A program made the translations under genes and the position numbers. DNA of 55,519 bases, counting the filler, from Jimgerdemannia flammicorona (Eukaryota), in the NCBI GenBank assembly GCA_003990765.1. It is 3 parts of 3 records of this genome, joined end to end, with 100 filler letters (N's around TTAATTAATTAA, not from the genome) between each part and the next. Parts side by side here need not be neighbours in the genome. Positions count along the whole stretch, not along the records: positions 1 to 18,452 come from RBNJ01002209.1; 2 more parts are not named here. One strand, 5' to 3'. The notes under the pieces were generated by a model, which searched no databases, was not told the origin of the DNA, and saw only the letters and a program-made list of their open reading frames with translations. This document shows positions 462-29,600 of this stretch, piece after piece; the stretch's first letter is position 1, and the number at the start of each line of letters is the position of its first letter.

Positions 462-2381
462 CTAGAACTCCATGCTCCTCCTGTCCCCCTCCATATCCAG
501 GCGCCGCTCAGCCTCCAACTCGTCCTCCATCACCTCCCGCGCATCCAGTGCCTCCAAGATTTCCTGGCACTCTGCTTCATCAACTACTTCGAATTCGGTC
601 CGATACTCCCTGCACACTACTCCCCACTTCTCCAACCCTTTCTTCGAGTTCCACAGGTAGGCTGCTCGATCATTCGCAATCACTCGAAGTTCCTCCTCTC
701 GCTGATCATCGACTTGATACTCCACCGACTCCAGGAGCACTGCCAGAATCTCATTCCGGACCTTCTGTGGCACCTCCTCACCTCGCAGAATTTCCTCCCA
801 GTGCCTATCACTCATAACCCGGAAGTCCTCACCTCCCAGCTCCTCAGCCGCCACCCCTTCCAGAGTCTTCCACAGCCACTTCTCCTCCTCCACCACTGCC
901 TTGGCACCCTGGGCACTCCCTTCCCCCCCAACCACTGGGTCCACCACGGCGATCCTCCTTCCCGACTCATCCCACTCCTCCTCTAGGACATCAAGAAGCT
1001 CCTCCTCACCTCCGACTCCTCCCGGGACCCCGTACTGTGGCTGCACTTCTACGCTCATCTCAGCATCCTCCACCACGCCGCCCTGCCCTCCTTCCCCACA
1101 GACCTCTTGGGCCACCCTTTGATCCACTCTGGGCTCCCCAGCCCAGTCACTTTCCCTCGATCCAACGCCACTTCCTCCCTTGCCACCTTCCACCACGCCA
1201 CCTCCCAATTTCTCCAGCAGCTCCTTCTGAATACGCCTCCCCTGCATCTTCTCCCAAGTTCCTCGATCCATCCTGATCTTCTTCCCTTCTACAATTTCCA
1301 CTACCGTCTTGGCCTCATACTCCTTCCAAGCCAATCGTCTCCTCTCGACAGCTCCCGTCAGATCCTCGAGAGCCTCCAGCAAATCCTCCTCTTCCTCCAG
1401 CGTCCCTTTCACCCGAGAGACCCTGCACTCAACTGGTCCCCACTTCAGCGTCGCCGGCCAGTCCCTCGCCTTCCCCGTGTTCTCCCGACCAAACAAGCGC
1501 ACTCTGACATCAACGTCGCCAGTCCTAAGTTCCGTACCCTCCCAGACTTTGAACCCGATATCAATGACATCCCCATACTCCTTCACCACCTCCACAATCA
1601 ACTCCCTAGCCCTCTCCCTTGACACCGTAGGAAGATCCAGAACCGTCAACTGCACCACTCTCGGATCCCAGCGCATGCACCTCGCCATAGGAACTACCAC
1701 TCCACCCACTACTACCCCTTTCTCCATAGCCTCCAGCATCGACACCTCTTCTTCAAACCCAACCTCAATTCCTTCCTTCCCCTTCATGAACTTGACCATA
1801 GCTGCCCCCTTCACCTCCTGCGCCACCAGCCCCAGAATCATCCTCGCAGTCACTGCCAAGCCTCGGAAACACAAAGTGACCGCGTATTCTGACCTCGACT
1901 TTTTGAGTAACGGTGCCGACACCATGCCTGTCACTCCATCAGCCAGGTCCCTGGGCCTCGTGCCCGCTTTCTGTCCAGATCCGCCAACCACCATCACATC
2001 TGGATTTTTTTCCAGATTCCCTGTCACAGCCCCATCAGCAGTCATATCTCCAACCCCTACTCCCCCTCCCCCCATACTGCCTGAGGCTCCCATGGGGGAT
2101 CCTCCCTGCCCTCCTTCTGAACCCAGCATCACCTTCCCCAGTCCCAACCAACCATCCAGCCCTGTGGCCATCTTTCCCATCCTGACCTTGTCGGCAAAGG
2201 TCGCCCTCCCCCCACCTCTCTGCCTCAGTCCACCTCTCCCTCCGCCTCCAGTGCCGCCGCCCACCACAGACGGCCCTGGCATCCCCAAGCCATCTTCTCA
2301 TTCCCTCCCAACCTGTTGCCAGGCGAAGGCATGGCTGCCCCCCTGGCCGACCCACCCACCAGTTTGCTCGTTGCTCACCAT
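462..2381 (-). CDS. LINE ORF1 protein (RRM-like nucleic-acid-binding region), with one in-frame TGA at 2298-2300
   Basis: The 608-aa ORF (462-2288) extends in frame to an ATG at 2381 across one stop. It aligns with ORF1 of copies 2 and 3 (e.g. RWDPRVVQLxV, EYGxVxDIxFxVWExTxxRTGD). No CCHC knuckle seen. Confidence 0.85.
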
Positions 2382-2472
2382 GTTGATAGTAGCTTTTCAC
2401 CAAAAACTTCGCAGAAAGTGATGTCCAAATCTTGTGTCACCTGAATGTTACCGGTGAAAGGTGCAAAGGAGG

Positions 2473-5457
2473 CCACAGGTCTCCACCTAGGCCTCACAGA
2501 TACTCCAGACCCTCACCAAGCTTAAAGTCCTCCACCAGGACACCACCTAGTAACAACCTGTCCCACCGCCACATCTGTGGTCCCCAATCCTCCTCGGCTT
2601 CATCATTTCACTACCGAAGTCCAATCTTCTTCATGCTATCCACCACCCCCCACCAGAAGCCTGTAAACCGCATCCTCCTGCTCTCCTCCATAGCCACCAT
2701 CGCGAGCAGATCACCCAAGTCACCATGTGGGGAGTACCAAACCTCCCACAATTACTGCATGAGTGGCACCCACTCCCGACCATGAAGCTTGCTTGCTCTT
2801 CTCAACCACCAAGCTCTAAGGCATAAGAGCCGCTTAGGAAAGTCCACTAAGCCTAGCTCACCTCTTTCCAAGGGCAGTGTGAGCATCTCCCAACCGACCT
2901 GGCTCCACCTCCCTCCCCAGATCCATGACCTCGCCATCTTCAACAGCCCCTTGACCACTCAGGTTGGGAAATCCAAATGATAACCAATGTACCACAGCTT
3001 TGGTATCCAATACACATTCAGCACCATTACCCTTCCAGCTAGAGACATATGCCAGCCTCCCCAGTACAGCAGAACATTTCCCCACTCTAACAATTTACAA
3101 TCCCACCACACCCAGGAAAGAAGAGACCCGAACACTGAGAAGTAGATCTCCAAATATTGCACTGGTTCTCCAGCTGGTACCACTGTCCCAATGACCTCAC
3201 CACCAATAATTCCAGTACCTAGCACTAGAGTCTCACACTTGTGCCAGTTCAGCTTAGCCCCAGAGCCCCTCTCATATCATTCCACAGACCTCTGTAACTC
3301 CCCCATATCTACCAGGGAGCCCAGCTCGACCACCATGTCATCAGCAAAGGCCCCCACCTTCCAATTAACCCCTAGAATGTCCAAACCCCCAATTCAACGC
3401 TGAATTCGGTCCAGTAGAGGCTCTAGAGAAAGGGCATACAATATGGGTGACAAGGGATCCCCTTGGGGCACCTCCCATCCCAGGGGAAAGGTTACCCCCC
3501 TGTGGTCATTAATAACCAGTACCGCCTGACTGTCCTCCAAGAGGCTGATCAGCGATCCTCAGAACCCTGGGGGGATACCAATCCATTTCAGCACTCCCTC
3601 CAGCCATATCCTCCGCACTCTGTCATAAGCCTTCTCCTGGTCCAGAAACACCAACCTGCCATCAACTCCTGCTGCCCAGGTACCTTCAATTACTCCATGA
3701 ACCCAAGCTGTCCCATCTCAAATCAACCAACCACCAACAAACCCACGCTGCTCCACCCCAAGTACCTGCTGAGCAATTCCTTGTAGCCTTATCACCAAGA
3801 TCTTGGTCACCAGTTTGCGGTCCATGTCGAGAAGCATAATAGGCCACCAGTTCTTCCAGTCCTCATGCCTCCCCTTATCCTTGTAGAGCAAGGAGACTAG
3901 CCCTAAGCACTGTCCCCCAATCCAGGCACCAGACCGAAGAACTTCACCACACATAGCAGTCATCTCCTCCAGCGCCTCACCGACTTCAGCCATTTTCTAC
4001 CAAAAATCCCAGGGAAGCCCATTCTCTCCTGGGGCAGTCCCTTTACTCGTCAAGGCCATAACTCTGCAAATTTCCTTGCCATATACTGGGTCCCCTAATG
4101 CCCCAAGTCCCATCACAGGGTTTGGGTGCCAATCCCCCAGCTGCCTCTCAACATCCATAGCGTCCATCCCTCCTTCTTCCTTACTTCACAAATTCTCCCA
4201 CCAGTTCTGCAATAGGCCCAGAATTGCTGGAGACCCCACCACCAGCTTGCCGTTCATGTCCAGAACCCCCTTCCACTGCTGCCTTGTTCGTTGTGCTTGT
4301 AACAACCTCGATAAAAACCTAGTAGGTCTCTCTCCTTCCTCCAGCCCCTGCTACTGCAAGCGGGCCACCATTCCCTGCAGCTTTATCTCCTCCTCCTTTC
4401 GTAACACTCCTTTAAGCTCTTCAACCTCCTGTCGGATTTGCACAATACGCCAATCAGTCACCTCCCTATCCTCCAGCATACCTGCCCATCTCCCCATAAG
4501 TGCTGCCAGATGCCGGGAGGCCCACAGCACCCTCTGCCTTTGCTGAGTACACTTCCCTTTCCCTGCCTCCCTCCAATATCTCTGGGCAGTTGCCTTCAGT
4601 CTTCTCCAATGGTCTCCAATTCCCAAGCCCTGTTCCTGCCACCTACTAATATTCCCAACCACCTCCGTCTCCCAACCCTCCCACAACACCCTATCTTCCA
4701 ACAAAGAGGAATTTAGCTACCAATGTCCAGGCCCATCCTCATTTCCCCCAAACCTCCCCCCTCCAAGCAGCCCACAGTGATCAGACCATGGACACCATAT
4801 CACTTCCAGCACCAACCAGACATCTGCTCTCCAACACTCCACCATCAGAACCCAGTCAATCCTGGAGCCCAGTCCTGCCGCCCAGTGGGTGTATACCTGC
4901 CAATCGGCCCAAAGGTGTCTTCCTGAGTCCACTAAAGAACACAATCTCTCTATTTCCAGCCAGTCCCCCAGCCCACCACTTTCACCCTACACACCTCTCC
5001 CACCATCAGTTCTATCCATCTCCTTATCCCATACCATATTGAAGTCACCCTCCATACAATCCAGGCCAACTTCTCCCAATACACCAGCCTCTTTCAATTG
5101 GCGAATCCAATCCACCCTCTCCCCTCTTTCAGCTGGATAATAACAAGACCCAACCATCAATGAGCCCCATCCAGGCCTCTTCTACAAACCCCACACCACC
5201 CAAGACCCCCAATGTTCAATGTCTACAATGTCCCCCATCCCTTTCCGAATGAGAATACACACTTTCCCCCTCCATACTGCCATGCCCCCCCATTCCTTAG
5301 TCCAATCCTGTAAGTCCACATCTTTCTCATATTGAACATCCTGTAGCAAGAAGAGGTCCACGTCCAGTCCCTTAAGCTAACCAAATATGTACTTCCTCCT
5401 AGCCGCCCCCTGTAACTCATTAATGTTCAATGAGAATATCCTAGTTGTACTGTTCAT
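2473..5457 (-). pseudogene. LINE ORF2 (APE endonuclease + reverse transcriptase), disrupted
   Basis: Motifs in order on the minus strand: FSLNINEL, LLQDV, GDFN, SRIDWVL, WSDH, KNWWPIMLLDMDRKLVTKIL, LDQEKAYD, VPQGDPLSPILY (~3440-3475), GAFADD (~3335-3355), YLEI. Confidence 0.9.
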
Positions 5458-5488
5458 ATTGAAGAAATGTTGAATTGACTACCCCAAC

Positions 5489-7435
5489 CTAGTACTCTAT
5501 GCTCATCTCATCTCCAGCCAGATCCAAGTGCCATTCCGCCTCCAAGTCACCCTCCACATTAGCCTGAGCATCCAGTGCCTCCAAGATTTCCTAGCATTCC
5601 ACCCCATCCACGATCTCTATATCTGACCGGTAGTCTAGGCAGACTGTGCACCACTTCTCCAGTCCCTTCCTCGAATTCTACAAGAAAAGTATCCTGTCGC
5701 TCACAATCTTCTGAAGCTCCTCCTCCTGCTGATCATCCACTTGATATTCAACAGATTCTAAGAGAACGGCTAGGATCTCATTCCTCATCTTCCTCGGCAC
5801 CTCCTCCCCTTGCAGAATCTCCTCCCAATGCCTCTCCTCCATCACCTGGAAGTCCCCACCCCCCAGCTCTTCCGCCGCCACCCCTTCTAGGGTCTTCCAC
5901 ATCCACTTTTCCTCATCCACTGCCTCTGCCGCACCCTGAGCGATATGTCCCCCATCCACCTCTGGGTCCATCAGTATGCTCCTCCTCACTGATTCATCCC
6001 ACTCCTCATCCCACTCCTTATCCAGCACATCCATCAGCTCCTCCTCCCCCTCAGCCCTACCCAGGACACTATACTGAGGGTGCACACCCTCACCCATTTC
6101 AGCATCTACCACCAACACACCTTCCTCCTCTACCCTCTCTCCAATCTGAGCCCCACCCTGGGCCATTTTACCCCCCTCAGCCCAAGTGCTCTCCTGCAAT
6201 CCTGTAACTCCTTCTTCTGAGCTTCCACCAGCCCTACCCCCACCCAGCCTCACCAGCAGCTCCTTCTGTATTTTCCTCCCCTGCATCTTCTCCCAAACCC
6301 CTTTCTCCATCCAGACCTTCTTCCCATCCACCTCCCCTACCACCGTCCTGGCCTCAAACTCCTTCCAGGCCAATCTCCTCCTTGCAACTGCCCCTTCCAG
6401 ATCCTCCAGTGCCTCTAACAGGTCCTCCTCCTCCTCCTGGGTCCCCTTCACCCTCGCGACCTTACACTCCACTGGTCCCTACCTCAGCATCGCTGGCTAG
6501 TCCCTCCACCTTCCCGTATTCTCCTTCCCAAACAGCCTCACCCTGATATCGACATCACCAGTCCTAAGCATGGTGCCCTCCCAGACCTTGAACCCAACAT
6601 CCACGATCTCACCATACTCCTTGATCACCTCCACAACCATCTCCCTTGTCCTCTCCTTCGACACAGTTGGGAGATCCAACACTATCAACTGCACCACCCG
6701 GGGGTCCCAGCGTATGCACCGGGCCATAGGAACCACAACCCCGCCAACCATCACCCCCTTTTCCATGGCTGCTAACAAGGCGTCTTTCTTCTCAAACCCC
6801 ACCTCAACCCCCTCCTTTCCCCTCAAAAACTTCACTGAGGCCGCTCCCTTAGCCTCTTGTGCCACTAACTCCAAAATCATCCTCACCATCACTACCAAGC
6901 CCCGGAAGCACATAGTGACTGCGAATTCTGACCTCGACTTCTTGAGTAATGGGGCCAACACTATGCCCGTCATGCCATCTGCCAGGTCCCCAGGCCTCAT
7001 GCCCCCTCCCAGTCCCGAATTGCCAACCACCATCATATCTGGATTTTTTGCCAGATCTCCAGTCACAGCCCCATTAGCAGTCACAGCCCCATCTTCAGCC
7101 CCTACTCTGGCTCCTACCCTACCACCAGAGGCTCCCCTGGGCACACCTCCCTGTCCTTCAGCAGCAGCCATCGAAGCCTTCCCCAGGCCCAGCCAACCAT
7201 CAAGCCCAGAAGCCATCTTCCCTATTCTGACCATGTCAGCAAAGGTCGACCTCTCCCCTCCTCTCTGCCTCAGACTGCCCCTCCCTCTACCGCTGGTACC
7301 TCTGCTTGCCCTCAAGGCCTCTGGCATCCCCAAACCATCACCCCTCCTCCCCACCTGCTGCCAGCCAAAGGCACTGTCACCCCCCTGGCCAGTATGCTCA
7401 CCAGTTCGATCAGTGCTGTCCATGTTGCTAGTCAT
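5489..7435 (-). pseudogene. LINE ORF1, copy 2
   Basis: ORFs 6497-7435 and 5678-6472 are collinear with copy-1 ORF1 and are broken by TGG->TAG stops. Confidence 0.88.
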
Positions 7436-7513
7436 CTGACACCAAAAATGTTGTAAAAAGTGTTGTCTGAGTCTTGTGTCACCTGAATGGTACTGGTAAA
7501 AGATGTATAAGAA

Positions 7514-10500
7514 ATCTTACCATAAGCTAGTCTTTTGATACAACTTTATAGTAAAGTCAGTTTATCTAATATAACCTTATATAAATAAAGCCAGTCTTTG
7601 ATATAACTTTACCAAGAATCTGCTACCCAAGTTCTCTGAGTTACCTGAGTTATATATCAAATTATCCAATATTTCCAGAAAAGCTCACCAATTCAGAAGA
7701 ATCTATACTATCTGAGTTATTTTTCAGAAACTGGCCAATTTAGGAGAAATCTATATCATTTGCTATTTTCAAGTATCTGAGTTATCCAAATTATCCACTT
7801 AAGTTATTCAAGTTATTCAAGAAGTTTACTAATTTAGGAGAATCTGCACCAAAATCAAGTTACCTGCTAAATCTATATAAGAAATACTACTAAGATCATT
7901 ATACTAAGATTGTCATACCAAGATTGTTATATCAGAAATTGTATACTTTTGGAGATCACTATACTATATAGAGATTATTACACTATATAAGAGATTGTTA
8001 TATAGAAATTATATAAGGAAATCACTCACATTATATAAAGATTGCCACTGTCTATAAAATCACTACTATATCCAAAAACCATTCTAATAAGAAAATTGAC
8101 TATTATATCCAGATTAACTATTATATTACTAAATACTAATAAGAAATCTTAGAACATTTTGTTGCTTTTAATAAAGTAACTAAGAGCTTAAGCCAAACTA
8201 TACCAACTCTCAATCTTGTAATTTACCTCTATTGAGCTGAGCATATTATATTTAGAGACTCAACTGAAAAGATTTCAAATTAACATAACTTTTCAGCTCA
8301 TAAGAACCTATAGTCAAACTGGATATATTTGATACAATATCAATTTCTGCCACTACAAGAGAACCAGTCATCACCAGCATTTGGACAAGAAGAGAAGTAA
8401 TTACTTCTAGACTTGCTAACTATCTAATATTAAAAGGATCTCAATAGGAAGCTAGCATAGTATAGAATCCTCAGTCTGTACTGACAGATTTCTTATCAGA
8501 TCAACCAGATTATACAGATAGCCCTATTACCAACTTTGACTGAATTGCTCAAGAACTAGAAGATCTCATTAGATAAGCCTGATTTTCTGCAGGACACTCA
8601 CTAATTTTACTTATTGAATCTCTACCACTAGTTGTTATAGAACAAGAAGACCAAGGAGTAGTTCTTTCAAGAATACCTAGATCTATTCCATCTTGCCCAA
8701 GATCCATAATACCATCTTCAGAATACTTAAGAATCCTGAACTCCAGTAATAATTTGGAAAGTAAATAAGAATCAGAATCTAAACTAGAGATAGAATCTAA
8801 ACCAGAATTAGAATCAGAAGACAGTGATGATGAAATGGCCACTCTATTGTCAACTTTTGCAGAATACCTAGAAGAAGACCCAAGAGAATTTCTTAATGAA
8901 ATTGAAGAAATCTCAGCCCTGAAGAATCTCTCTCTTAAAAGAAAGATCACTATCTATAAGACTCAACTCAGAGAGCCAGCCAAAGAAATTTTCACCTAAG
9001 TAAAAAATGACCTAAACTCAGACCTTAGAGCAGCCATCAATGCAGCACCCACTTGGCTAGCAGAGTATAAAGCCATGACCCACTGGCTTATTGAAAAGTA
9101 TACAGGAAATAAGATCTGCTATAAACTTAAGAATCTATCATAAGAATGAAGATATATTCTAGAGATTTATCTAGAGCATTCTTTATAAGAATTCAAAAGA
9201 GAATATATACCACCAGGTTCAATGTCACTAACTAAGACATCATAGGTTCAATGACCTTCATGAATGGAATTCCTCTGAATATTGCTCAGCATATCTACAC
9301 TCTAAATATTAGAAGATCTGAAGAATAAGTAGATGCAGCCCAAGAATATTTTAATATTAGATAAGAAACTATCTAGAGTAATCACAATAAGAAAGATGAC
9401 AAAGAAGACATTCTGATCAAGGCTCTATAAGGACTCCTTTAAGAACAGAAGAGATCTGAAGAAAAGAAGTCAGCTAAAGAATAGAAGAAAAATAGGAGTA
9501 AAATTTAAGACCTTAGTTCCAAGTTACACTGATTGATAGAATAGATTAAAAAACTTATCAAATATGAAAATCAGAACTACCAACAAGATAACTAAGGATA
9601 TATACCCCAAAGGAACCAAGGATACCCACTCAGAGATAATAGAAGTTACTAGTAAGATATCTTATCTAAGATAGAACTCAAGTCCAATACTTCTACTATA
9701 GATAATTTAGACACTATGCTACTGAATATGATAATAAAAGAAGTAACTGAAGAGATTCAGAACTATCAAATTAAAGAAATAAAACTCAGTATAAGAAGAC
9801 TAAAGTCTATTCTATTGAAGACTTCAAAGAAGAAAGTAACAATAAAGACTACAGTAATCTGGACTTATACTTAGCCAAAATCATCACCAGGAAAACAGTT
9901 TATCTAGTAGAGAAAAGAAAGAGACCTATAGGAAGACTATCCAGGAATATCAGCAGAAGAATTCAGGAGGAAGATAAAGAACATAAAGAGGAATAAGTAG
10001 AAATATCTCTCTGATTTCTCTTATCTTTTGTTTCTAAAATAAATAAACTATCTCTAGAGGATGAAGAAATAGAGCAAGAAGAGCCTGCTATCCTAAAGTC
10101 TAAGAAGAAGTACACCCTGAAGACTATGTCTTGAGATATCTATAATAAAGTCTGATAGAAGATTTAAGAAGTCAAGATAGAAGTATCTCTTCTATAGTTT
10201 CTACAACTGATACTAACTAGAGTCTAAAACAAACTACTGAGAACCATTAGGTCTAGCACTGGCTGAGTCTCAATCCCATAGCAAGAGCTAGCCCCCACTC
10301 CTATCCAAACTACAGAGAGACATATCAGCACCTACTTATATGGAGATATTAGAGGACAAAAGGTGAAAATTCTCATAAATATATATAGAAGTAGCTATCT
10401 ATATCATTGCTAAATAATTTCTAGATACCCTTTAATGACCCATTGATAGACCATCTAATCTCAGTATTATAGTAGCAGATGGAGTCCAAATTCAACCTCT

Positions 10501-12590
10501 TGGAGAAGTATAAAACATCATTATCTCTCTTGAACATATTCAGTTTTCTATTCCAAAAGTTGTTATCACCAAAGCTATTATCTATAACATAATTCTTGGC
10601 ACTAACTAAATGAAGAAAATGAATGCAATTATTGATATTAGTCAATAAGTACTCAAGTTTGACTATAGAGGTAAGAAGTACAGAGTTAAGGTAACTAGCT
10701 ATGAGTAATCAAAGAAGAAAAAGAAGATCACCATCTAGGAAGAATATGTCAGTAGTGAAGAGTCTATCACAGAAGAGGAAGAAGAATCTGAAGATAGAAA
10801 TAATCCCAGACTTAATCTCCAAATTAACCTAGTAGATGACAGGCCAGAAGATAATATATAGACCAGAAACACTATCCCTATCACTATTGGAGCTATTACA
10901 GAATAGATCAAAGAATGCCCCATCTGTTTCAAAAGACACAAGTGCTCTGAGCACTCCTCTAAGATCATTGAGATAAGGAATTTGCCTGGTACAGCCTGTC
11001 TTGAGTGTAGAAAGAAAAAGAAGAAATACAGACATGTTCCAGAAATACCTACAGCTAAAGCTACAGAAGTACAAGCAATCTGAGGTCAAGAATCATCTGA
11101 AGAAGAAGAGGTCCCCAAACTCATTTCTTGGAATAACCCTCACTGAACACTATTTGAAGACAATGATTCTTGGAATATTGAAGAAGAACTCAGTATAATT
11201 CCCATTATTCCAAAGTGAGAAATATATCCAAAAAGAGCCTTTTAGTTAGGAAGATATCTATATCAAATAGTCTTCTACTCTCCTCAAGACTACTGCTATC
11301 AGTACTACCTACTGGACTAATAAGAAAGACAGAGACCCTGGAGGTCAGAACTTCCAACTATAGTTACATAGTCAACTATCTTCCAGAAAGTCACTACAAG
11401 ATTATAAAGCCAAGCTAGAGGATAAGGCCTTTTTATCTGAACTGAAATATACTCCTTAGTCATTCTTCTCCCAATCTATAATTAAGATAGATACTGATTT
11501 TTAAGACAATAAGAGATCAATAACTGAGAATAGCATTTTTGAGCAATGAGATATTGTAATAATGAAAGACACTCAGACTGCCAGAACTGCAGACATTAGA
11601 TGATTCATCTTAGTTAAGATATTGTAGTCTATATACTAAAGAGAGGAGACAATAGAACTCAGATCCCAAAAAGTCAAACCAAGAAACCAGAAAGAAGGAC
11701 CCTCAAGATATATAATTTGGGAGAAGATATTCTAGCTCTTATTAGATATACAACTTGCCAAGAATGGGTAGAAGATGCTACCAATTTTATAGAAGCCCTA
11801 GACCCTGCATGACTATAGCACTAATTCTTATTTAGCCTAATCTATAGAAGTCATTTATCCTATATACAAATGTCTCCAAAGATGGTCTTGGAGCAGTTCT
11901 AGCCTAAGAAAGACCTGACCAATAGTACCATATAATAGCTTATATAAGCTGAGCAATCAATCAGCAGCAAACTAACTATAGTAGTACCAAACTAGAATGT
12001 CTTACAGTCATATGAGCAGTTATCCTATTCAAGTATTACTTTATCAGAAAAAAATTCCCTCTTATAACTAATTATACAGCCCTCAAATAGTTATTTAACT
12101 ATAAGAAATCTATCAGAATCCTGGCCTGCTGGATCCTTATCCTTCAGGATTACAAAATTACTATTATTTATAAAGCAGAGAAAGCTCACAATAATGTTGA
12201 TATACTTTCCCACCAACCCTAATGAACTAGAAGAAGAATATACCAAAGAACTATACTCTAAAAGAAGCTTCTCTAACTATCAAGATATAAGAAGATCTCA
12301 TTTAAAAAGAATACCAGAAAGCCCATCAAGAATAGATAAATATAGAAGAAAACTGTAGACAATAGACCAATATTGACTCAATCTCAGAATATAAGTCTGA
12401 GACATACTTAAGAAATATGATATCTGTCAGAAGTACTAAGGAAGAAAGAATTATCAAGCACTACTACAATTAATCATACTACTAGATAATATCTTCTAAA
12501 GATAGAGAGTAGATGTAATTAGATCTCTATCAGCTATACTAAGAAGAAACAAGTATATTCTTATATTTGTAGAATATCTAACCAAGTGAT
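7514..12590 (+). mobile_element. Highly decayed Ty3/Gypsy-like LTR element (gag, protease, RNase H, partial integrase; no recognisable RT)
   Basis: Gag-like EEDPREFLNEIEEI (~8870). Protease-like YGDIRGQKVKILI (~10340). RNase H FILYTNVSKDGLGAVL and NYSSTKLECL (~11850-12000). KAHNNVDILS (~12185). Integrase DICQK and YILIFVEYLTK (12420-12590). The AT-rich repeat region 7514-8330 may be its LTR. Confidence 0.7.
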
Positions 12591-14990
12591 AACTCAACTA
12601 TTTCAAACTCAATCTAATATTAATACTATTATTATATTTATTGACTGCCTAACCAAGATTATAATTACCAAATCAACTACTACCAATACTACTATACCTG
12701 AGATTGTAAGAATCTTCTTCAAGTCTATCTTCTATCACTATAGTCTACTATGAATAATTGTCAGCAATTATGACCCTAAGTTCACTAGTTACTTCTGATA
12801 AACTCTATTCAAGACTCTGGGAACCCAATTGGCTATATTCACTGCCTTTTATCTATAAACTAATAGACAAACTGAGTGTAGATCTCTCTATATCATTTAC
12901 TCCCCACAAAGTATTTCTCTTTCTATATTATTTTTCTTCACAAACTACCCTTCTTTTTATATTATTTATCTTTACAAAATATTCCTCTGCATCATTCAAC
13001 CTTACAAAGTATTCTTCCTTCTATATTGTTTACCTTCACAAGTAATTTAAGATCAGGTTCTTTATATCTATTAGGGGTTTTAGATGGAAGATGTGAAGGG
13101 GGGGTATGGGAGGGTGATGGGTAGGTGATGGAGAGTGTGGGGGTAGAGTTTGGGTTGGGGCATGGAGAGATAGTAGAAGGCATGGGAGTGGGAGTTAGAT
13201 TTGGGTATGGGAAGATAGTAGAAGACATAAAGATAAGATTTGAGTTGAAGTATAGAGAGGTGATGGATAGTATAGAGGAGAGGTTGGGTTCATGTTGGGG
13301 CATAGAGGAATAGTAGAAGACATAGGGGTAGTGATTGAGTTTGGGTGTAAAGAGGTAGTGGAAGGCATGAAGGTAAGGTTTAGGTGGTGGATGGTATAGA
13401 GAGAGGAGAGAGTGGGTTTGGGTTGGGGCATGGGGGAGTGGTAGAAGATATGGGAGTAGAGATCAGGTTCAGATGTGGGGAGATAGTGGAAGGCATGAAG
13501 GTAAGGTTTGGGTTGAGGCATAGAGAGGTGGTGGATGGTATTGTGGGTTTGGTTGGAGTATAGAGAGGTGGTAAAAGGGGGGTTGGGTTCAGATAATGGG
13601 AGGTATGAAGGTAAGATTTGGGTTAGAGCATAGGGAGGTAGTGGACAGTGTGGGAGGAGAGAGTGGATTTGGGTTGGGGTGTGGAAATGGGATTCAGGTC
13701 AGGGTATGGGGATGGAATTCAGGTTGAGACATGAAGAGGTGGTGGAAGGTGTGGGTGGGGTTCAGGTTGGAAATATAGGGAGGTGTGGAGTGGGGTTCAG
13801 TTTGGGTTGAGATATGGGGAGGTTGTAGAGAGCATAGGATGGAGTTTGGGTTCAGAAGGTCAGCAGAGATAAAAAGTACCAGAATGGGATAGGGTTGGTG
13901 AGTACTATAAAATACAGACAAACTGAGTATATGAATAGAACTTTAGAATAAATACTTAGAAACTACATTTCTTGTGAACATAATAATTAGAACTATTACT
14001 TAACTTATACAGAGTTTATATACAATAATGCTGTCCAATCATCTACTGGTCTTTTCTCCTTTTGGCTACTCTATAGCTAAGATTCTAATATCTCTATATA
14101 TAAGTCTATTATCTTTTAAGAAAAGTAGTCAAATATAAGTTTTTACTGCTAAGAACCTCATAGACAAAATAGATAAACTTCTCAAGATTACTACTATAAA
14201 TCTTCAGAAGGCTCAATAGTATTAAGCCAAATATAATGCTATAATATCATCTATACTATTAGAGATTAAGTTCTACTATCTACTGAGAACCTCAGAATAT
14301 AATCTTAAGTCAACTGTCTATCAAACAAATTCTAACTCAAGTATATTGAACTCTTTGAGATTATAGAACAAGTCTCTATATCCTCCTATTGTCTCAAGTT
14401 ACCTAAAACTATAAGAGTATATCCAGTCTTTCATGTATCATATCTTAAAATCTGAAATCAATTACCACCCTACTCTGGTTAAATTCTCAAGTCATCTATC
14501 CTTATAATTATCAAAGACCATATTGAGTATAAAGTTGAGAAAATTCTTAACAAGTGAATTTGCTACTATTGTCCTGAATATCTAATCAAATAGACTATTC
14601 TCAATATGATACTATCTAGAAACTACTGATCAATCTCAAAGACTCTCAAGACCTAGTTCAAGACTTCAAAGCAAAATATATTATCTAATACCTATAGTAA
14701 CTTTTTTAGATTATTAATAACCTATAGTAATAACCAGTGTCTTATGTATTGAAAGTTTACTTTGAGATCCCAGAATGAGCAGAATATCTAATGAATAAGA
14801 AGTCTACCAAAATGAAACTACTAGTTGAGTTCAAACTCCTCTCGGTCTGATAATAGGCTCTCTGCTCTATATGAAGATAGTCAGTTCTCACTAATATACT
14901 AATATAAGTTTGAGAAATTTTGGTTAAGTATAATTAGCTCTATATTACCTAAGAACTCAATAAGGATGTTAGTTCTTAAGAAGAGAGGAA
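12590..14990 (+). mobile_element. 3' half of a second Ty3/Gypsy element (chromovirus): integrase core + chromodomain + polypurine tract
   Basis: IIFIDCLTK, IVSNYDPKFTS, TNRQTE/[insert]/QTEYMNRTLE, YPVFHVS (~14420) and chromodomain EYKVEKIL...EYLIK (~14525-14590). PPT aagaagagaggaa at 14978-14990. Confidence 0.8.
12881..13915 (+). mobile_element. G-rich tandem-repeat insertion flanked by a target-site duplication (putative LINE-mobilised SINE-like element)
   Basis: Splits the integrase at QTE. agacaaactgagtRta occurs on both sides (12865-12880 and 13916-13931). The body is a degenerate ~40-bp G-rich repeat. Confidence 0.7.
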
Positions 14991-15190
14991 TATAATAATT
15001 TCACAGTTATATTTTAGTCTTAGTACTTTTTCACATCTTTTTATTAGGTTTTTCTTATCTTCTCTTACATATTCTACTATATTCTAGTACTTTTCAAATA
15101 CTTAGAAATCTTCTCTTAGTACTAAAACACCACTAGAACATTCTTGTCTTTTTTTTAGTATTAAGTATCTTATCTTAGCTAGTTATAGAA

Positions 15191-16415
15191 CCTTTTATTT
15201 TTATTTTTATTTTTATTTTTATTTTTATTTTTGTTTTATAGACTCAGAGTTCTGTAGATTTTATTGAAAGAAAACCTAGACTATATAGACCAAAACTCTC
15301 CTTTGCCACCTACTAGATATTACTCTCTTATTAATTTAGGCTACCAAATTGTCCTACAGTCTCACTATTTCCACTATATATATCAGATATGCCAACTCCC
15401 ACTATATAGACTAGACTTGTCTATTTATCAGAACTGGATCATCATAACTATATGTGAGAGCACATCTATACATTAGATCTAGCAATACTAGGACTAAATA
15501 AAGAATAACTCTCCAAACTCTAAACAAAGACCTGAGGTAAAGAAAAACCCCCAACTAGTCAACAGAAGATAGAATAGATTCAGAGCAGATAAGTAAAGAA
15601 CTTATATATAAGACCTCCTCAAAAGAATTAATATATAAACTAAGATTTGAAAAAGTCTCACTTCTACTCTCTGAGCCTATAGGTCTCAATTATATTGCTA
15701 TATTAGCTCCTGGTTCCAGTTAGATACTGTCAAATAAGAGAGGTCCCACTTCTCAAGCCTGTGGACCTCAATTATATTACTATATCAGCTCCTAGTTCTA
15801 GTTAGATATAGTTAGAATATTAGTTCCTACACTACTCTATTCTCTGTCAGCCAATTAAAAGGCCCTACTGAGATAATATCTATCTCAATCCCAATGACTG
15901 CTCTCAGCCTAGCACCCTACTAGTCTATCATTATTACCTTTCTGCCTATCTGTAATGGCCATCTCTTCTCTCATCTCAACTCCATCTGAAAAGCAGTCAC
16001 CTACACCAGAACTGTACTTGCCAAGAAGCTTACTAAAGCTCAGAGGGCCCTACTATAGGTACTGAGGACTTATAGATAATCTACACTAGTACTTAATATC
16101 TAAGGTCAGTTGATTTTATATACAGTCTGTAATATATCAGATAATATCTTATTGATAATAGCAAAAAGAAGAAAGTACTGCATCAAAACAAGTATACTCT
16201 AGATATAGTTGAAGATATCAAAAACTACAAAAAAAGAAAGAAGACACTGATCTGACACTAATAAAGGAGCAACTTATTATCATTATCTCCCTCTTATTAT
16301 ATCCTTACAGATACAGTAAACCAATCTGAGATAAAGAGATAATAATAAAGGAAAGGAGACTCAAAAGATTATCTACCAAACCTTATAACTAGTAAGATAG
16401 CAGAAAAAGGAGTTT
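15191..16415 (-). mobile_element. ~1.2-kb non-coding poly(A) retroposon (SINE-like), full-length hypermutated copy
   Basis: A-rich tail at 15193-15236 and AATAAA upstream of it. gttatagaa is duplicated at 15182-15190 and 16416-16424. Its 5' ~280 bp match the young copy at 36705-36987. Confidence 0.8.
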
Positions 16416-16434
16416 GTTATAGAATTCTATTAGT

Positions 16435-16802
16435 TTTTTTTTTATTTTTTTTTATTTTTATAATTACTCAGACTCTTTCTTTTATTAATATACCCATCTA
16501 TACATTATATAATACATTGTACCCACTCCTAACTAATCTCCCTAGGGCTCTCCTCTCTCCTCCCCCCACTCTCTCCTGATGAAAGACCACTTTATTATTC
16601 ACCATCTCTACCCACCCACTACTCTGTTCACATATCTCTTCTATCAGACAGTGATGTTACCCACCCTGGGGACCCCAACCAACCCACCATCCAGTCAGCA
16701 GATCTCCCATCAATCTCTCTCATCTTGACAACTTCTCTTGTATTTCCATCTATTGCTCCTTCTCAAAAACAAAGAGCCAATGTCCCACCAGCTCTATCTA
16801 TA
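16435..16802 (-). mobile_element. 5'-truncated LINE 3' fragment with poly(A) tail
   Basis: Perfect 16-bp TSD atagaattctattagt (16419-16434 and 16803-16818). AATAAA plus A tail. Purine-rich sense strand like the LINE copies. Confidence 0.8.
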
Positions 16803-17053
16803 ATAGAATTCTATTAGTCATCTTTGCTAAGAATCTATTTTTTAGTTTTTCTCTTCTTTTCTAAGATTCTTCCAGATCTTTCTTTCAGATTTTGTATAAA
16901 TATTCTTATTTTCTGCTTAAATAAAGCTTAGAATATTTTCTCTCAGAATTTCTTCAAGAATACTTAAACCTATAAGTATTTCTTAAGCTACTTTAGACTC
17001 ATCAGAACTATTAGTCTTAGCTACTTCCACTTAAAGAAACTAGAACTGTTATA

Positions 17054-17567
17054 GATAAATATATCTTTGAATAATATAGTAACTGATCTGACTAGTTTAC
17101 TTATCTTCTTAAAATATTTAGTTATAATATATCTTATCTGATAGTAAAAAAAATATACTTCTTACTTTTTTAGATATTTCTTCTCTCTTAAAATAAGTTT
17201 GATATTTTTTTTATTCATAAAGTCTAGATTTATTGAAACTAGTCTCACTATTTTAGACTAGTTTTTATGGTAGTTTTTGAAGTTATTATTTTTATAATAT
17301 TTTTATTCAATATAATAGCTATAGATAATGATATCAAATCAATTAGCAATTCTTATAGCTTCTTTAAGAAAGCTTGATTTTTCTAGCTCAATTTTGACTT
17401 ATGTATTTCTTTTAGACCTCAGATATAGTAGTTTATCTTCTCATCTTCTGTAATATTAGTTAGTTTTAAAAGAATTAGTAAGAATTATATATTATATATA
17501 ACTTTATATAGACTTGAGTTGTTTGATATTTACTAGTCTATCTTTAGCTAGTTTGATAGTATTAGCT
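17054..17567 (-). pseudogene. Extremely AT-shifted Ty3 gag fragment
   Basis: Its reverse complement aligns with gag at ~33640-34130 (e.g. acagaagatgagaagataaac vs actgaagacgagaaggtcaac). Confidence 0.7.
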
Positions 17568-18100
17568 AGTATTCTAAATGAGTTAATTCAATCTGAATTG
17601 AATTTAGATTAGATTTGAATTGAATTCTATTTAAATTAGCTTGGATAATTCAAATTGAACATTATTTTGATTTTCAAATTAGATAATTAAATATTTATAT
17701 TAATAACTCAATATATAATTATCTAATTTTAATAATTATAGTATTATTTTAAAATTCTTAATAAGGCCTTTCTAATGATACTAAGAATATTAAGGTAAAT
17801 ATCTAACTTACTGATTTTGAAAATTTCTTCAAAAGAATATTTTTCTTAATAGCTCAACAATATATAATCTAATTCTAATATTCTTGATATTATTAAAAAG
17901 ATCTTATTAAGGGCTTTTAAATGATACTATAATTATAATTATATATTAAGTTATTGATATAAATATTTAATTATCTAATTTGAAAATCAAAATAATATTT
18001 AATTTAAATTGATCTGGATCAGCTCATTTTTCATTTAAGCTGATCTAGATAAGTTTGAATCTAATTTGAATCTGATTTAGCTTAGTTCATTCAAAGTACT
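17568..18100. mobile_element. Foldback/MITE-like element with long inverted arms
   Basis: 17661-17790 is a near-perfect reverse complement of ~17878-17999. The termini agtattctaaatgagt / agttcattcaaagtact are inverted. A related partial copy lies at ~18860-19190. Confidence 0.7.
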
Positions 18101-18452
18101 AGATCTAATATACTATAGTAGTAATTATTTTTTCTAGATTAATCTATATATATCTCTATATCTATATCTTCTACTATAAAGAGATCTAAATAATCACTCG
18201 GACCAAACAGTTGGCTCTGCGTCTAAGCCACCAGAATGGTGAGCTTCTCAAGTTTTGGAGACCACAAATATAGGCTCCAAGGAGCGCCAACAGGTGTACC
18301 TCATCCCTTAGGTATAGGAGTCCCACCTGGTCTTTTCGGCGTAGCCATAGCTTCTAGTTTCAGCAAGTTACAAGGATTTCAAGAATTTCGGGGCAAGACG
18401 GGCAAAACGACACAGGCAAGATGGGCAAGACGGGCAACACGGGTAACACGGG

Positions 18453-18552
18453 NNNNNNNNNNNNNNNNNNNNNNNNNNNNNNNNNNNNNNNNNNNNTTAA
18501 TTAATTAANNNNNNNNNNNNNNNNNNNNNNNNNNNNNNNNNNNNNNNNNNNN
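18453..18552. other. Artificial scaffold gap linker
   Basis: N run, TTAATTAATTAA (stops in all six frames), N run. Confidence 0.97.
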
Positions 18553-18579
18553 AAAAAAAAAAAAAAAAGAGAGAAAAAA

Positions 18580-18800
18580 GTCCCCATCCACTTCACCTGT
18601 CTTTCTACCATACTGGTCTCAGTAGCTACTATAAAACTCTTAGAGAGGTCAAGGCCAGACCTCTTCCTCTCTAAGTACTTAGAGCTTGACAACTCTTAGC
18701 TTGCTATATTACCAAAACTTGATGAAATTTGACAAAACTTATTGTAACTTATAGCTAGACTTCTGCTACATCTAGTACACTAGTATTGGCAAAGTAAAAA
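18580..18800 (-). repeat. Decayed repeat homologous to 26295-26500 (+); possibly the 5' end of a second LINE family
   Basis: gatgtagcagaagtctagct...aagtacttagagaggaagaggtctgg aligns with aatatagcaaaagtctagct...aagtatttaaagagaaaaagatctag. Confidence 0.5.
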
Positions 18801-19577
18801 CTTGAAAATAGATTACTTTTTATAAAAAGATATCTATGTGGCTTAACTTATTCTGAGTGATTTAAGCAAAAGAAGTTTTCTTAAAGAGATCTTTCTGATG
18901 ATATCAAGAATGTTGAAATTAGATGATATATAGACAAGTTATTAATAGAAATATTTTTTAAAGAAATTTCCAAAATCAGCAAGTTGGATCATTTGTATCA
19001 TTTCTATAGCTATATAGTTAAATTGCTCAGCTATACTATCTGATTTTAATATTCTTGATATCATTAAAAAGATCATATTAAGGACATTCAAATAATACTA
19101 TAATCAATAAAATTAGATGATTTTTTATTAAGTTATTGATGTAAATATTTTATTATCTAATTTGGAAATCAAAACAATAATATTGACATATCAAATTTGT
19201 ATCACATAAGTTACTTAGTATAAATTTATAAATATAAAATAATTTTTATTTTTTTTAATATTTTTTTTATTAATAATATATTAGACTATTAAAAGTAAAA
19301 AAATATAAATAATAATATTTTATTATTCAATATAATTCTAATTTGAACTATATAAAATAATTATTATCTTATATTTTCAATTAAATCAGCATTAATAAAA
19401 ATAACTCAAACAATTAGTATTTTTCTATTAATATCAGAAATATGACAGTTGCATTCATTTATTGGTGTTGCATTTAGCGAAAGCACAAAAAAGAAACCAC
19501 AAAAAGACAAAAGAATGAAAGTGTATATAATGCACTAACAAGTTCAATTTACAAAGACAACACTCCTACAGCATTGA

Positions 19578-25615: not shown

Positions 25616-26659
25616 TCCAAATAGTTTGTGAGTGTGATGAGAGAAAAAGCAAGGTCAGTGTGTAGAGGGCATGATAGTAATTTTAAATAACTAGGTCACC
25701 AGTGATGATGACGCAACACCCTAGATTGTGAATTATACACCTGGTATTCTTAGTTTTAAAATTCTGGGCCAAATGTGATGAATCAGAGGTCCGCAAATTT
25801 GCTGATGAGGAAAAATTAGTCACTTCCATTTAGAAAATATGGAACCCCATTCTTTGTATAATAACTAAGTGTTATTTTATTTTATTTTATTTTTATTTAT
25901 TAATAAATAGTATAATTACTATATTAATAATATTATTTGATAATCTTATCTAATTAATTTACTAATTTTTATAATATAGACATAGATATATAATTAATAA
26001 TAATAATAACTGGAAGAACTCTATTCTATTTTCAAACTCTAGTCATATTATTTAAATAACTTTTAGTTTACTTAAGTATTTATAATAATACTTATTACTT
26101 CAAGATTATTCTTAGATATATTAGATAATAAGATATTACTTAGAGACTTAATATATAATATATTAAGAGGTCTTTCAATTGTTCTTTCTCTTAGTTACAA
26201 AGTTGAGAAAGTATAGTAAGAACTTCTTTTGTTTAAACTATTTAAAAGAGTTAAGCTATATATATCTTTTAATAAAAAGTAATATATTTAATAGTTTTTA
26301 CTTTATAACTGCTAATGTGTAAAATATAGCAAAAGTCTAGCTTTAGTTTGCAATAATCTTTATTAAAATCTGATAAATTTTAGTAAAATAATAAGCTAAA
26401 ACTCAATAGGCTTTAAGTATTTAAAGAGAAAAAGATCTAGTTTAGAGTTACTCAAGAGCTTTGTAATAATAGCTAGATCTAAAGGTACTAGAAGAAGTAA
26501 AGAAAGACAGAAGAGAGCTACTAAAGTAAAGAGATGATATACTATAGTAGAGAGCAGAAAAGCTACTACTAGATCTATAGTAATAGGATAAAAGAGATAT
26601 AATATTAATAGAAGAGAGAGTCAGATAACTAGTTAGATAACTAATAGAAATTAGAAGTA

Positions 26660-29600
26660 GGTACCTTTCTTCAGTACAATTCATGTTACACCAACTTCAA
26701 GCAACAGTTTTTCAATACAACTCAGAGAAAAGGTATTATAATGATGTCATCAAGCAAGAGTTCTGCTAGGTGTGCTAGATCAGATGGACCTGGGGCTTTT
26801 GGCTGGCAGTATGTAGAGAGGGGTTATGGCCTGGGGATGGGGGCCTTTGGAGGATTGAAGAGTGGCAGGGACTCTGGAGGTGGACTGGTGTCTGGTAGTC
26901 ATGGAGAGAGGTCTGGCCCCCCAAGTTTTGTAGATAAGATGAAGGAGAGTAGGTGGTCAGCTGAGACTAGGGCTAGTATGGCAGTAGGAAAGAGTAAGGT
27001 AAGCCTAGGGAGGGGGGGAGTTGCTCAGGGGGAGAATGCAAGCATAGGTACTAGAGGTGTGATGGCTGAGGATGGGACTGCTGATGGTAGTATAATGGAC
27101 AATCAGGAAAAAAAAAGAGATATGATGGCTGATGGCAGTATGGGGCAGGGGTTCCTGATGTGGAAGGGAGACCTGGCCAATGGTATGACAGGGCTGGTGG
27201 TGGCACTATTACTCAGGAAGTCAATCTCAGAGTTTGTAGTGACGCTGTGCTTCCAAGGCTTGGTGGTAATAGCAAGGATGGTCTTGGGGCTTGTCTTGAA
27301 GCAGGTGACTAGAGCTGTCTCAGTGAAGTTCCTGAAGGGTCTAAAGGGAGTAGAGGTGGGCTTTGAGGAGGTAGGCTTACTGAAAGAGGTGCTGAAGTCT
27401 AGAGTAGTAGTTAGTGAGGTAGTAGTCTCCATGATATGCTATCTGAGGTGGGACCCCAGGGTGGTGCAGCTGCTGGTGAAGGGGGTGCCTACTGTGATGA
27501 AGGAGGAGACTAGGAGGAGAGTAGAGAAGATGATGGCAGAGTATGGCAATGTAGTGGATATCGAGTTCCAGGTATGGGAGGAGACCTCTATTAGGACTGG
27601 TGATATGGAGGTGAAGATTAGACTGACAGGAAGGGAGGCCACAGAGAAGATGAGTGACTGGCCCTCAGTGTTGATTTGGGGGACTTTTGTCTGTAAGGTG
27701 TCAAGGGTACAAGAGAATGAAGAGGAGGAAGAGGACTTATTGGAGGCACTGGAAGAGTTGAGTAGTACTATTGAGAGGAGGGCAAAGGCCTGGAAGTTGT
27801 ATGAGGAGTCAATACATTTGGAGATTGTTGATGGGAAGAGGATTTAAACTGACAAAGGGCAGTAGGAGCATACCCAGGGGCACAAGCAGTAGAGAGAGTT
27901 GTTTGTGAGTATGAGCAGTAGGACTAAGAAGAAGGCAGATGGGGCTGAGGTATCTGGGGGTATTGAAGCCAGTGTCTGGGCCAGTAAAGATGAAGGGGAG
28001 GTAGAGGCAGGCAAGAAAGAAGCTGGGAAGGTGCTGAGCAAGAACTCCTATACTGACAGTACATTCAAGGTCTGGGAGCAGGAATTGGATACCACTCCCC
28101 CCCCTCTTATCAGAAGGGACCTGGCTGTAAAGAGAGGGATAACAGAGGATGTACTGATGCAGGAGGCCCAGCAAGTGCACTTTGGGGTCCCTGATGTGGC
28201 AAAAGGGGGCCAGGTGGTGGCAGTTGGTGAGGACAAGCTGGTGGATATCTCTGAGAAGGAGTAGGATGAGGCTACCAGTGTAGGAGCTGATACCACAATG
28301 TTAAATGTAGGGCAGCCAGAGACTCTGGGAGAGAAGGAGGTGGGGAACTTGTTGTGGATGAGTAAGATGATAGATTACCTCATAGCAGATACATTGGGAG
28401 AAGTGGACCTGCAGGTAATGCCTGAGGAGTATTGGGCATAGATTCTGTATGGTGATAGAGTGGTGGAGGCACTGAAGACAGAAATTCTTGCAATTTTCCT
28501 AGAGGAGGAGGGATATGAGATTGATGAGGTAAGGAAGGCAGAGCTGGTGGTGGTTGCTGATGAGCAGGCAGCCTACTGTTGGGTGGAGCATCATAGTTTG
28601 CAGCTCTGGTAAGAGGCCTGTCTGGAGTATCATGAGGACTTTGAGGAGCAAGAAGATGGGGTGATGATAGAACTTCTGGGAGGGTTGGAGGCACAGGAGG
28701 CTGGAGAAAGGGAACTAGCTGCTGAATATGACTTGGACTTGGTGCAGGAGGAGCCAAATGTGGACTTGTAGAGGATGGGATTATGTATGATATATCATTA
28801 TTTCTTATGAATAGTACAACCAACATTTTCTCTTTGAATGTGAATGGGTTAAGGGGATCTGGGCAGCATAAGAACATTTTTACTTGGCTCAAGGGATTGG
28901 AGGCTGATCTCTTTTTACTATAGGATATTCAGTGTGAGGATGAAGACAATCAGGTGGAGTGGACTAGGGAATGGGGTGGGGCTACTGCTTGGTTTGGAAA
29001 AGTAGCAATTCTGGTGAGGAAGGATAGAGAAGACTTGGGGGGAATCAGAAGCTAGAGTGATCACTTGGTCTGGAGAGATTGGCATCAGCCAGGGTGGGAG
29101 TTGGTGAAGGTTGGTTCTTGCTACTACTCCACAGTTAGGGGTGAGAGGACTGCATGGATTCAGGAGCTGCTGGAGGAGAGTATTCTCTTAGAGGAAGAGG
29201 TTGATGTTCTTAGTAGGGACTTTAATATGGTTCAGGATCAGCATCTAGACAGAACTGATGGAGAGAGGAGTGTAGGGGGGAGAAGTGGAGGTCTGGATGC
29301 TTGGGAGGAGGTGGAGAAGTTGAGCTCCTTAGGAGATATAGGCAGAACACAGTGGGGCAATACCAGGGTCTATATATATTAGATGAATGGCTTGGGTACA
29401 AGGATTGACTGGATTCTGACAGCAGAGTGCTGGGGTTCCAATATTTGAAAGGTGCTAGAGATGGAGTGGTGCTCATGGTCTGATCACTAGAGACTGTTGG
29501 GACAGAGGCAGTTTGGGGGGAGTAGAGATAGACCCAGATATTAGCACCTTAACTCCTCCCTGCTGGCTGAGAAGGGGTTGTGAGACTCATAGGTAGAGGA

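Follow-up and report, generated by a model that had tools for sequence, protein, structure and literature searches.

C-to-T hypermutation of transposon copies in a window of the Jimgerdemannia flammicorona genome

The window and its P6 repeat pair

The 55.5-kb stretch of Jimgerdemannia flammicorona DNA analyzed here (the window) holds genes for a cullin, an RPD3-type histone deacetylase (HDAC), a BTB/SPRY protein and a LOTUS-domain protein, a PP2C exon, and the relics of transposons. Our comparisons confirm that the transposon copies carry a C>T hypermutation that resembles repeat-induced point mutation (RIP), acts on both strands and in all sequence contexts, and is confined to transposons. 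A preliminary description had proposed such a directional C:G-to-T:A process from two copies of an unclassified repeat, here called P6, and the proposal is supported by codon changes in nearby Ty3 elements, which run 41:2 and 59:1 in the C>T/G>A direction. All sequence comparisons were confined to the window, which consists of three unlinked contigs; the two P6 copies lie on separate contigs. The features that matter first are as follows.

18453 to 18552 and 36988 to 37087: contig linkers, N44-TTAATTAATTAA-N44 (filler, with stops in six frames); the joins are not physical neighborhood
7501 to 19450, no strand: AT-rich block of transposon relics, spanning a linker, GC content 0.10 to 0.35
16139 to 16414, minus strand: old copy of P6, hypermutated, GC content 0.28, zero CpG
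36704 to 36987, plus strand: young copy of P6, GC content 0.57, CpG observed/expected ratio (O/E) 0.70, truncated by the contig end at 36987

Both P6 sequences quoted in the preliminary description are present, the young one on the plus strand from 36706 and the old one as the reverse complement of 16135 to 16415. The copies share a common terminus near '...CTCCTTT'. The young copy starts directly after the codons ...ILHEHHNSP (36696 to 36706), within the zinc-finger motif of a Ty3 integrase, and is either an insertion nested in that element or the product of an assembly join. A Pfam search of the P6 element returned no match, and a metagenome scan with a degenerate pattern fitting both copies returned 0 matches.

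The P6 match is not due to chance (blastn E-value of 6.5e-27). The two copies are 69% identical in nucleotides, and their identity rises to 98.9% (277 bases) once transitions are disregarded by comparing bases only as purines or pyrimidines. In a MAFFT alignment (columns 17 to 295), 193 of the 278 aligned positions are identical, with 1 gap column and 85 substitutions; read from the young to the old copy, these are 41 C>T, 39 G>A and 5 others. A transition-tolerant local alignment covers 282 positions and contains 87 substitutions: 41 C>T, 42 G>A, 1 T>C, 1 A>G and 2 transversions. Here 83 of the 87 changes are forward, meaning C>T or G>A toward the AT-rich copy, and 2 are reverse (binomial p = 1.9e-22), with 2 gap events. 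The earlier statement that nearly all changes are C:G-to-T:A, with few indels or transversions, thus holds for this pair. Corrected rates are about 0.73 for C>T per C/G site, 0.017 for A/T>G/C per A/T site and 0.007 transversions per site.

The changes fall on C/G positions (80/158 altered in the MAFFT alignment, against 4/120 A/T positions) and extend across all four CpN contexts. By context, the MAFFT alignment has 22/30 CpG, 20/35 CpA, 26/58 CpC and 12/35 CpT sites mutated; the local alignment has 82/159 C/G sites mutated in all, including 60/128 of those outside CpG. Both strands are affected to the same degree, with 41/80 C sites and 39/78 G sites mutated and the two types interleaved. 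Such a pattern resembles mutation of each site independently of its neighbors, at a rate of about 0.7 hits per C/G site. Strand patches of the kind left by processive mutation of a single strand were considered and rejected, with neighbor concordance at 42/101 for same-base and 27/56 for different-base sites.

The AT-rich block also contains a palindromic, extremely AT-rich repeat (17647 to 18010) that matches its own reverse complement at 75%; pieces akin to it occur on the next contig, at 18880 to 19179.

Direction and context of change in other repeats

Because the two P6 copies provide no outgroup, neighboring relics were used to polarize the changes. Two Ty3 relics were compared with reference proteins, and the stops at conserved columns were assigned to the residues that they replace.

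33372 to 36707, plus strand: younger Ty3 gag-pol relic, 13 in-frame stops, YIDD changed to YIDN, CpG O/E 0.08
11854 to 14673, plus strand: older Ty3 pol relic (RNase H, integrase, SH3), 27 in-frame stops, TDAS changed to TNVS
Stops on conserved R codons: TGA at R (20/20), TGA at R (7/8)
Stops on conserved W codons: TAG (20/20), TGA (11/12), TGA (16/16), TAG (17/18)
Stops on conserved Q codons: TAA (6/6), TAA (16/16)

The references were 20 of the 150 Ty3-type polyproteins that matched the RNase H open reading frame (ORF) at 36036 to 36671, picked by length and a single matched stretch and compared with the window by tblastn; columns were used if at least 6 references aligned with at least 60% agreement. 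In the younger relic, positions 34602 to 36707 align to the reference polyprotein in a single frame without a frameshift. Replacements at its conserved columns comprise 41 reachable only via C>T/G>A, 2 reachable only via the reverse changes and 45 others. The corresponding counts in the older relic are 59, 1 and 41. By strand, the codon changes are 16 C>T and 28 G>A in the younger relic and 30 C>T and 37 G>A in the older one. Eight of the nine stops at conserved columns of the two relics lie on R, W or Q; the ninth, a TGA, replaces H (6/8) and is not accounted for by C>T/G>A. The codon polarization and the stops on invariant W, R and Q residues therefore fix the direction as C>T/G>A. The codon comparison bears out the described conversion of CGA, CAA and CAG to stops in the Ty3 polyprotein, as well as the two altered motifs, YIDD to YIDN (LVYIDN in the younger relic) and TDAS to TNVS in the older. 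A search for a long terminal repeat pair, in nucleotide and in purine/pyrimidine comparison, found none for either Ty3 relic.

The older Ty3 relic is broken up at about 12880 to 13918 by a G-rich array, and the surrounding DNA (8000 to 12990) has a CpG O/E of 0.00. The tandem array (12900 to 13900, period of about 128, about 78% matches) interrupts the integrase and contains no CpG. Strand skew is extreme at 13000 to 13900 (G 0.37 to 0.46, C 0.03 to 0.06) and opposite in the preceding 100 bases (C 0.26, G 0.02); 16500 to 16800 is skewed too (C 0.37, G 0.09). The array could be the footprint of C loss on one strand only or a natively skewed satellite. A purine/pyrimidine comparison of 13000 to 13900 with the rest of the window gave low-complexity matches only and no informative relative.

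Further diverged pairs were found by a transition-blind self-comparison of the window, and in each the AT-richer member bears the excess. Together with a LINE-like family, they are listed here.

17085 to 17580, minus strand: old gag fragment (P9), compared with 33600 to 34110; 102 forward changes, 23 reverse, 57 transversions; GC content 0.21
26210 to 26490, minus strand: the more mutated copy of pair P5, compared with 18605 to 18890; 44 forward, 18 reverse, 21 transversions
16805 to 17015, plus strand: old fragment of pair P4, compared with 32815 to 33030; 25 forward, 8 reverse, 14 transversions
1 to 2480 and 5027 to 7520 (within 1 to 7520), minus strand: LINE-like copies A and B, copy A with an intact ORF1
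26640 to 29585, plus strand: LINE-like copy C, 2 CpG remaining in 2.8 kb, CpG O/E 0.03

When P6, P9, P5 and P4 are pooled, the mutated fraction is 25/37 (0.68) at CpG, 93/157 (0.59) at CpA, 55/120 (0.46) at CpC and 80/200 (0.40) at CpT. The preliminary description had placed changes at CpG and also at CpA and CpC; this is borne out, and CpT is mutated as well. The spectrum is not limited to CpG, with 228 of the 253 forward changes in the four pairs lying outside it. A plant-like preference for CHG was also considered and rejected (CHG 41/93 against CHH 187/384, p = 0.49; CG 25/37). Two very AT-rich pairs, P10a and P10b, show weak asymmetry (10:8 and 13:6, forward to reverse). Mutation intensity therefore varies among transposon copies.

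In the LINE-like family, ORF1 of copy A (462 to 2297, minus strand) is intact and encodes 611 amino acids, its coding strand is very purine-rich (plus-strand C 0.43), and it has no match in Pfam. All four in-frame stops of copy B lie on W or Q codons of copy A (TGG>TAG three times, CAG>TAG once), in agreement with the TGG-to-TAG change described earlier for LINE ORF1. The A-to-B comparison as a whole has a modest excess, with 243 forward and 159 reverse changes and 273 transversions. The CpG count falls from 88 in A to 38 in B and 2 in C, while GC content drops just from 0.57 to 0.49. A three-way alignment assigns 235 forward changes, 82 reverse changes and 327 transversions to the branch of copy C, but these counts are unreliable because the copies are too diverged (A to C, 56%). 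Overall, the claim that several transposon families are affected stands, with Ty3, the LINE-like elements and P6 among them and all four repeat families in the window involved.

Genes, introns and a control duplication

Gene regions, introns and a duplication outside the transposons served for comparison.

43862 to 47009, plus strand: RPD3-type HDAC gene, its introns used as a neutral reference
37218 to 38394 and 39665 to 40892, plus strand: linked 1.2-kb non-transposon duplication (P1), 93% identical, used as a control

CpG O/E is 0.94 to 1.13 in gene regions and 0.93 in the nine HDAC introns (752 bases, GC content 0.44). In transposon DNA it is 0.00 (8000 to 12990), 0.04 (AT-rich block), 0.08 (Ty3, 30001 to 36700) and 0.03 (LINE-like copy C). 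The C>T change is thus confined to transposon, or heterochromatic, DNA and spares genes (CpG O/E 0.00 to 0.08 against 0.93 to 1.13). The AT-rich block has a TpA O/E of 1.06, against 0.66 to 0.69 in the cullin and 37088 to 49900 gene regions, and a CpA+TpG O/E of 0.84. Its edge is sharp and lies at about 19450, with the last cullin exon some 200 bases away; GC content is 0.10 to 0.12 at 19150 to 19450, immediately downstream of the cullin gene, and 0.33 to 0.40 beyond.

One P1 copy (39665 to 40892) includes the 3' portion of the BTB/SPRY gene (40094 to 41602, minus strand), which encodes SPRY. Changes between the P1 copies are symmetric: directional transitions number 28 one way and 33 the other, next to 18 transversions, and CpG is intact (12/183 and 11/185 sites mutated). 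P1 has about 0.05 C>T per C/G site and 0.016 transversions per site. Relative to P1, P6 is distinct in the direction of its changes (Fisher p = 1e-13) as well as in its transition:transversion ratio (p = 5e-5), and per transversion the old P6 copy carries over 10-fold the C>T load of the control. The spectrum in the repeats is therefore not the neutral one represented by the introns, with their CpG O/E of 0.93 and GC content of 0.44, and by the symmetric P1.

The HDAC gene also identifies the host. Its exon at 44517 to 44972 is 96% identical to the histone deacetylase RpdA of J. flammicorona, 93% identical to that of Umbelopsis and 92% identical to that of Mucorales. Conversely, the J. flammicorona RpdA protein matches the exons in the window at 95 to 100% identity (99% for residues 403 to 536, 100% for the last 79 residues). 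This identity places the host outside Dikarya, as the preliminary description had supposed; it is J. flammicorona or a very close relative (Endogonales, Mucoromycotina) and not a member of Pezizomycotina. The BTB/SPRY ORF gave a mere hint of Mucoromycota when compared with its protein relatives.

Elsewhere on the third contig, a 693-aa open frame (52020 to 54098, plus strand) lies downstream of the PP2C exon and has no Pfam family. When 8000 candidates drawn from 5.8 billion clusters were scored for it, one weak relative emerged (43% identity, 25% of the query covered), which carried no information on taxonomy. Near-identical simple-sequence tracts are common to 47259 to 47310, 49925 to 50030 and 55430 to 55519.

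Mechanism, alternatives and comparison with known systems

The preliminary description had left the enzymology open, naming an equivalent mutator or dense non-CG methylation/deamination. Equal mutation of both strands rules out that a single-stranded intermediate was edited, be it cDNA by an APOBEC-type enzyme or RNA, and indicates duplex genomic DNA as the substrate. In the explanation that we favor, the transposon copies are inactivated by C>T mutation of double-stranded genomic DNA, which strikes both strands equally and ceases sharply at the repeat edge. It runs at two speeds: CpG is erased in almost every transposon copy, and in copies within AT-rich relic blocks the other contexts are converted too (CpA > CpC ~ CpT), with about half of C/G lost. 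Such copies end up with numerous stop codons but hardly any indels or transversions. DNMT1-superfamily cytosine methyltransferases may mark transposon heterochromatin, such that a CG-maintenance activity could lead to CpG loss and a DIM-2-like, all-context, heterochromatin-directed enzyme could lead to losses in the remaining contexts. Deamination of the (methyl)cytosines would follow, either enzyme-assisted or spontaneous but much accelerated. The loss of CpG first and the sharp restriction to transposons fit methylation-linked deamination. We give this DNMT1/DIM-2-like, heterochromatin-directed scheme an even chance of being correct, and it is its enzyme, methylation state and mode of deamination that we infer. 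The outcome is RIP-like.

Published work on the candidate enzymes is compatible with this scheme. One study describes RID-1 as exclusive to Pezizomycotina and lists DIM-2-like homologues in Endogonales and Glomeromycota (PMC9963178). DIM-2 is described in another as methylating every CpN context (PMC13297926). Two precedents exist: in the DIM-2 branch of Neurospora RIP, DIM-2 is able to mediate C>T mutation via heterochromatin factors (10.1101/115501), and in Zymoseptoria, Dim2 drives transposon-specific C>T mutation in mitosis (10.1101/2020.03.27.012203).

Several points weigh against methylation-linked deamination by such enzymes. The enzyme would be assigned from one literature passage plus analogy. 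In Phycomyces, also of Mucoromycotina, a methylome study gives non-CG methylation of 0.3 to 0.5%, against 2.2% for CG (PMC7862722). The broad spectrum in the window, highest at CpG, is unlike that of Zymoseptoria, where more than 98% of changes are at CA and CG is spared (10.1101/2020.03.27.012203), and unlike the CpA preference reported for ascomycete RIP (PMC12543289). The composite RIP index (TpA/ApT minus (CpA+TpG)/(ApC+GpT), positive if >0) is marginal, at 0.04 in the AT-rich block, 0.21 in 14000 to 18452 and 0.12 in the old P6 copy; it is -0.09 in the older Ty3 relic and -0.43 to -0.58 in genes. P6 is the sole clean pair, the pairs P9, P5 and P4 being older with 14 to 57 transversions each, and its own direction is taken from the neighboring relics and the mechanism, with no third copy. 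Finally, a kingdom-wide k-mer screen scores 'Jimflamm' as 'no_rip' under RIP_status, with 23 k-mers enriched in non-coding DNA and 0 in repeats (PMC12543289). That screen took only scaffolds >50 kb. Since the listed J. flammicorona assembly has an N50 of 10,860 (and 73% repeats), it probably had little power for this species.

True homology-triggered RIP, in which dedicated machinery (perhaps a divergent RID/Masc1-like or another enzyme) would recognize duplicates before meiosis or in the sexual phase, at zygospore formation, and deaminate their cytosines in a small number of intense bouts, appears unlikely, although part of the evidence suits it. P6 pairs a heavy transition load (83/87) with barely any further divergence, as a burst would; the younger Ty3 relic is free of frameshifts over 2.1 kb despite its 13 stops, and every repeat family in the window is affected. 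RIP has duplication thresholds of roughly 0.4 to 1 kb or more and >80% identity. P1 is unmutated at 93% identity, and its transversions (18/1155) are no lower than those of P6 (2/282); since P1 may postdate the last episode, this is evidence against such a trigger rather than proof. Further, P6 lacks strand patches, each site having been mutated independently at about 50%, and the loss of CpG first in the LINE-like copies (88 > 38 > 2) resembles methylation decay and not a CpA-preferring RIP. On the biological side, Endogonales form zygospores in sporocarps (PMC5729711), which would provide a sexual stage, but RID-1 is reported to be exclusive to Pezizomycotina (PMC9963178). A still less probable explanation invokes no special mutator at all, such that old relics in non-recombining, AT-drifting regions decay by an ordinary AT-biased spectrum, methylated CpG fastest. 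CpG is indeed the most depleted context everywhere, P9, P5 and P4 contain many transversions (57, 21 and 14) and some reverse transitions, and LINE-like copies A and B differ by a modest excess (243 against 159, with 273 transversions). Ordinary decay is difficult to reconcile with about 0.73 C>T per C/G site at 0.007 transversions per site in P6, compared with about 0.05 at 0.016 in P1, or with introns that keep a GC content of 0.44 and a CpG O/E of 0.93 and a sharp boundary at the cullin gene.

The two remaining alternatives are more doubtful again. AID/APOBEC-superfamily deaminases are said to occur in some fungi, and a single-strand DNA cytidine deaminase of this type could edit retroelement cDNA or transcribed DNA during retrotransposition. 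The affected elements include retroelements (Ty3, LINE-like), and the strand skew at 13000 to 13900 is of the one-sided kind (G 0.37 to 0.46, C 0.03 to 0.06). Such editing predicts changes on one strand, whereas in P6 the C>T changes (41) are interleaved with G>A changes (42) and the Ty3 relics are two-stranded as well (16 C>T/28 G>A and 30 C>T/37 G>A). With half of the C/G sites mutated on both strands, the changes do not stem from one editing event, and we regard this route as very improbable. Least probable of all is the reversed direction, with the AT-rich copy ancestral and the GC-rich copy having gained G/C by A-to-I RNA editing or GC-biased gene conversion. It draws on the fact that the window has two P6 copies and the pair itself has no outgroup proof. 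Against it stand the codon polarization in the same block (59:1 and 41:2) and the stops on invariant W, R and Q. RNA editing would strike one strand only, biased gene conversion would favor W>S transversions too (P6 has 2 transversions), and 15 CpG would have to be newly created, the old P6 copy having none.

The window presents a RIP-like outcome in a phylum new to such mutation, spread over many contexts and probably achieved without RID. Our literature searches turned up neither RIP-like mutation nor 5-methylcytosine reported for Endogonales or Jimgerdemannia, and a 2025 kingdom-wide study states that repeat-directed mutation signatures are unique to ascomycetes (PMC12543289). RIP is regarded as a trait of Dikarya, essentially of Pezizomycotina, and firm documentation of a pattern like this one has so far come only from ascomycetes and some basidiomycetes; such a mutator would shift the origin of mutagenic genome defense deeper in the fungal tree. 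A lineage without RID yet reportedly with a DIM-2-like enzyme would allow the sufficiency of DIM-2-class enzymes for RIP-like mutation to be tested in nature. The process would also help to explain the inactive transposons in a 230-Mb genome with >70% repeats. A more speculative extension, which we hold only tentatively and think somewhat unlikely, is that Mucoromycota have a RID-independent, RIP-type defense that acts via a DIM-2-like heterochromatin-directed enzyme, with the mutagenic branch predating Dikarya and ascomycete RIP being a later specialization.

The closest comparison is with RIP in Neurospora crassa and other Pezizomycotina, which has a RID-dependent and a DIM-2-dependent branch. 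Shared features are a near-exclusive C:G>T:A change in repeats (83/87 in P6, with P9, P5 and P4 in the same direction), mutation of both strands with up to half of cytosines lost, stops without frameshifts, and AT-rich relic blocks adjoining unaffected genes. The differences are that the host belongs to Mucoromycota, RID being reported absent outside Pezizomycotina (PMC9963178), that the context is broad with only a mild preference for CpA, which at 0.59 lies below CpG at 0.68 in the four pooled pairs, and that canonical RIP is triggered by any duplication while the linked duplication P1 is untouched, although P1 could postdate the last episode. AID/APOBEC editing of cDNA would leave changes on a single strand, G>A on the coding one, whereas P6 has nearly equal numbers of C>T (41) and G>A (42). 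In Basidiomycota with a DNMT1-type system, methylated transposons undergo CpG-biased hypermutation or decay, reportedly described by Amselem et al. in 2015. Common to them and the window are a transposon-restricted CpG depletion, set against intact genes and introns, and a RIP-like C>T change without canonical RID-type RIP. In Microbotryum, the hypermutation target motif is TpCpG. The window differs from CpG-methylation decay of the DNMT1/DNMT5 type in that its mutations are not essentially limited to CpG, 228 of 253 forward changes lying elsewhere.

Mitotic mutation by Dim2 in Zymoseptoria tritici likewise involves C>T change confined to transposons, and there it is methyltransferase-linked and needs no sexual cycle (10.1101/2020.03.27.012203). 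A DIM-2-class enzyme is also the sole candidate so far reported for Endogonales. The two differ in spectrum, which is CA-dominated in Zymoseptoria, whereas the window is mutated most heavily at CpG and, at 40 to 46%, at CpC and CpT too. Outside Dikarya, a hint of RIP-like mutation comes from Zoophthora radicans (Entomophthorales), based on the composite index and accompanied by the authors' own caveats (PMC11105155). The evidence there consists of dinucleotide indices alone, whereas the hypermutation described here is established by copy-pair spectra together with codon polarization, and in another phylum.

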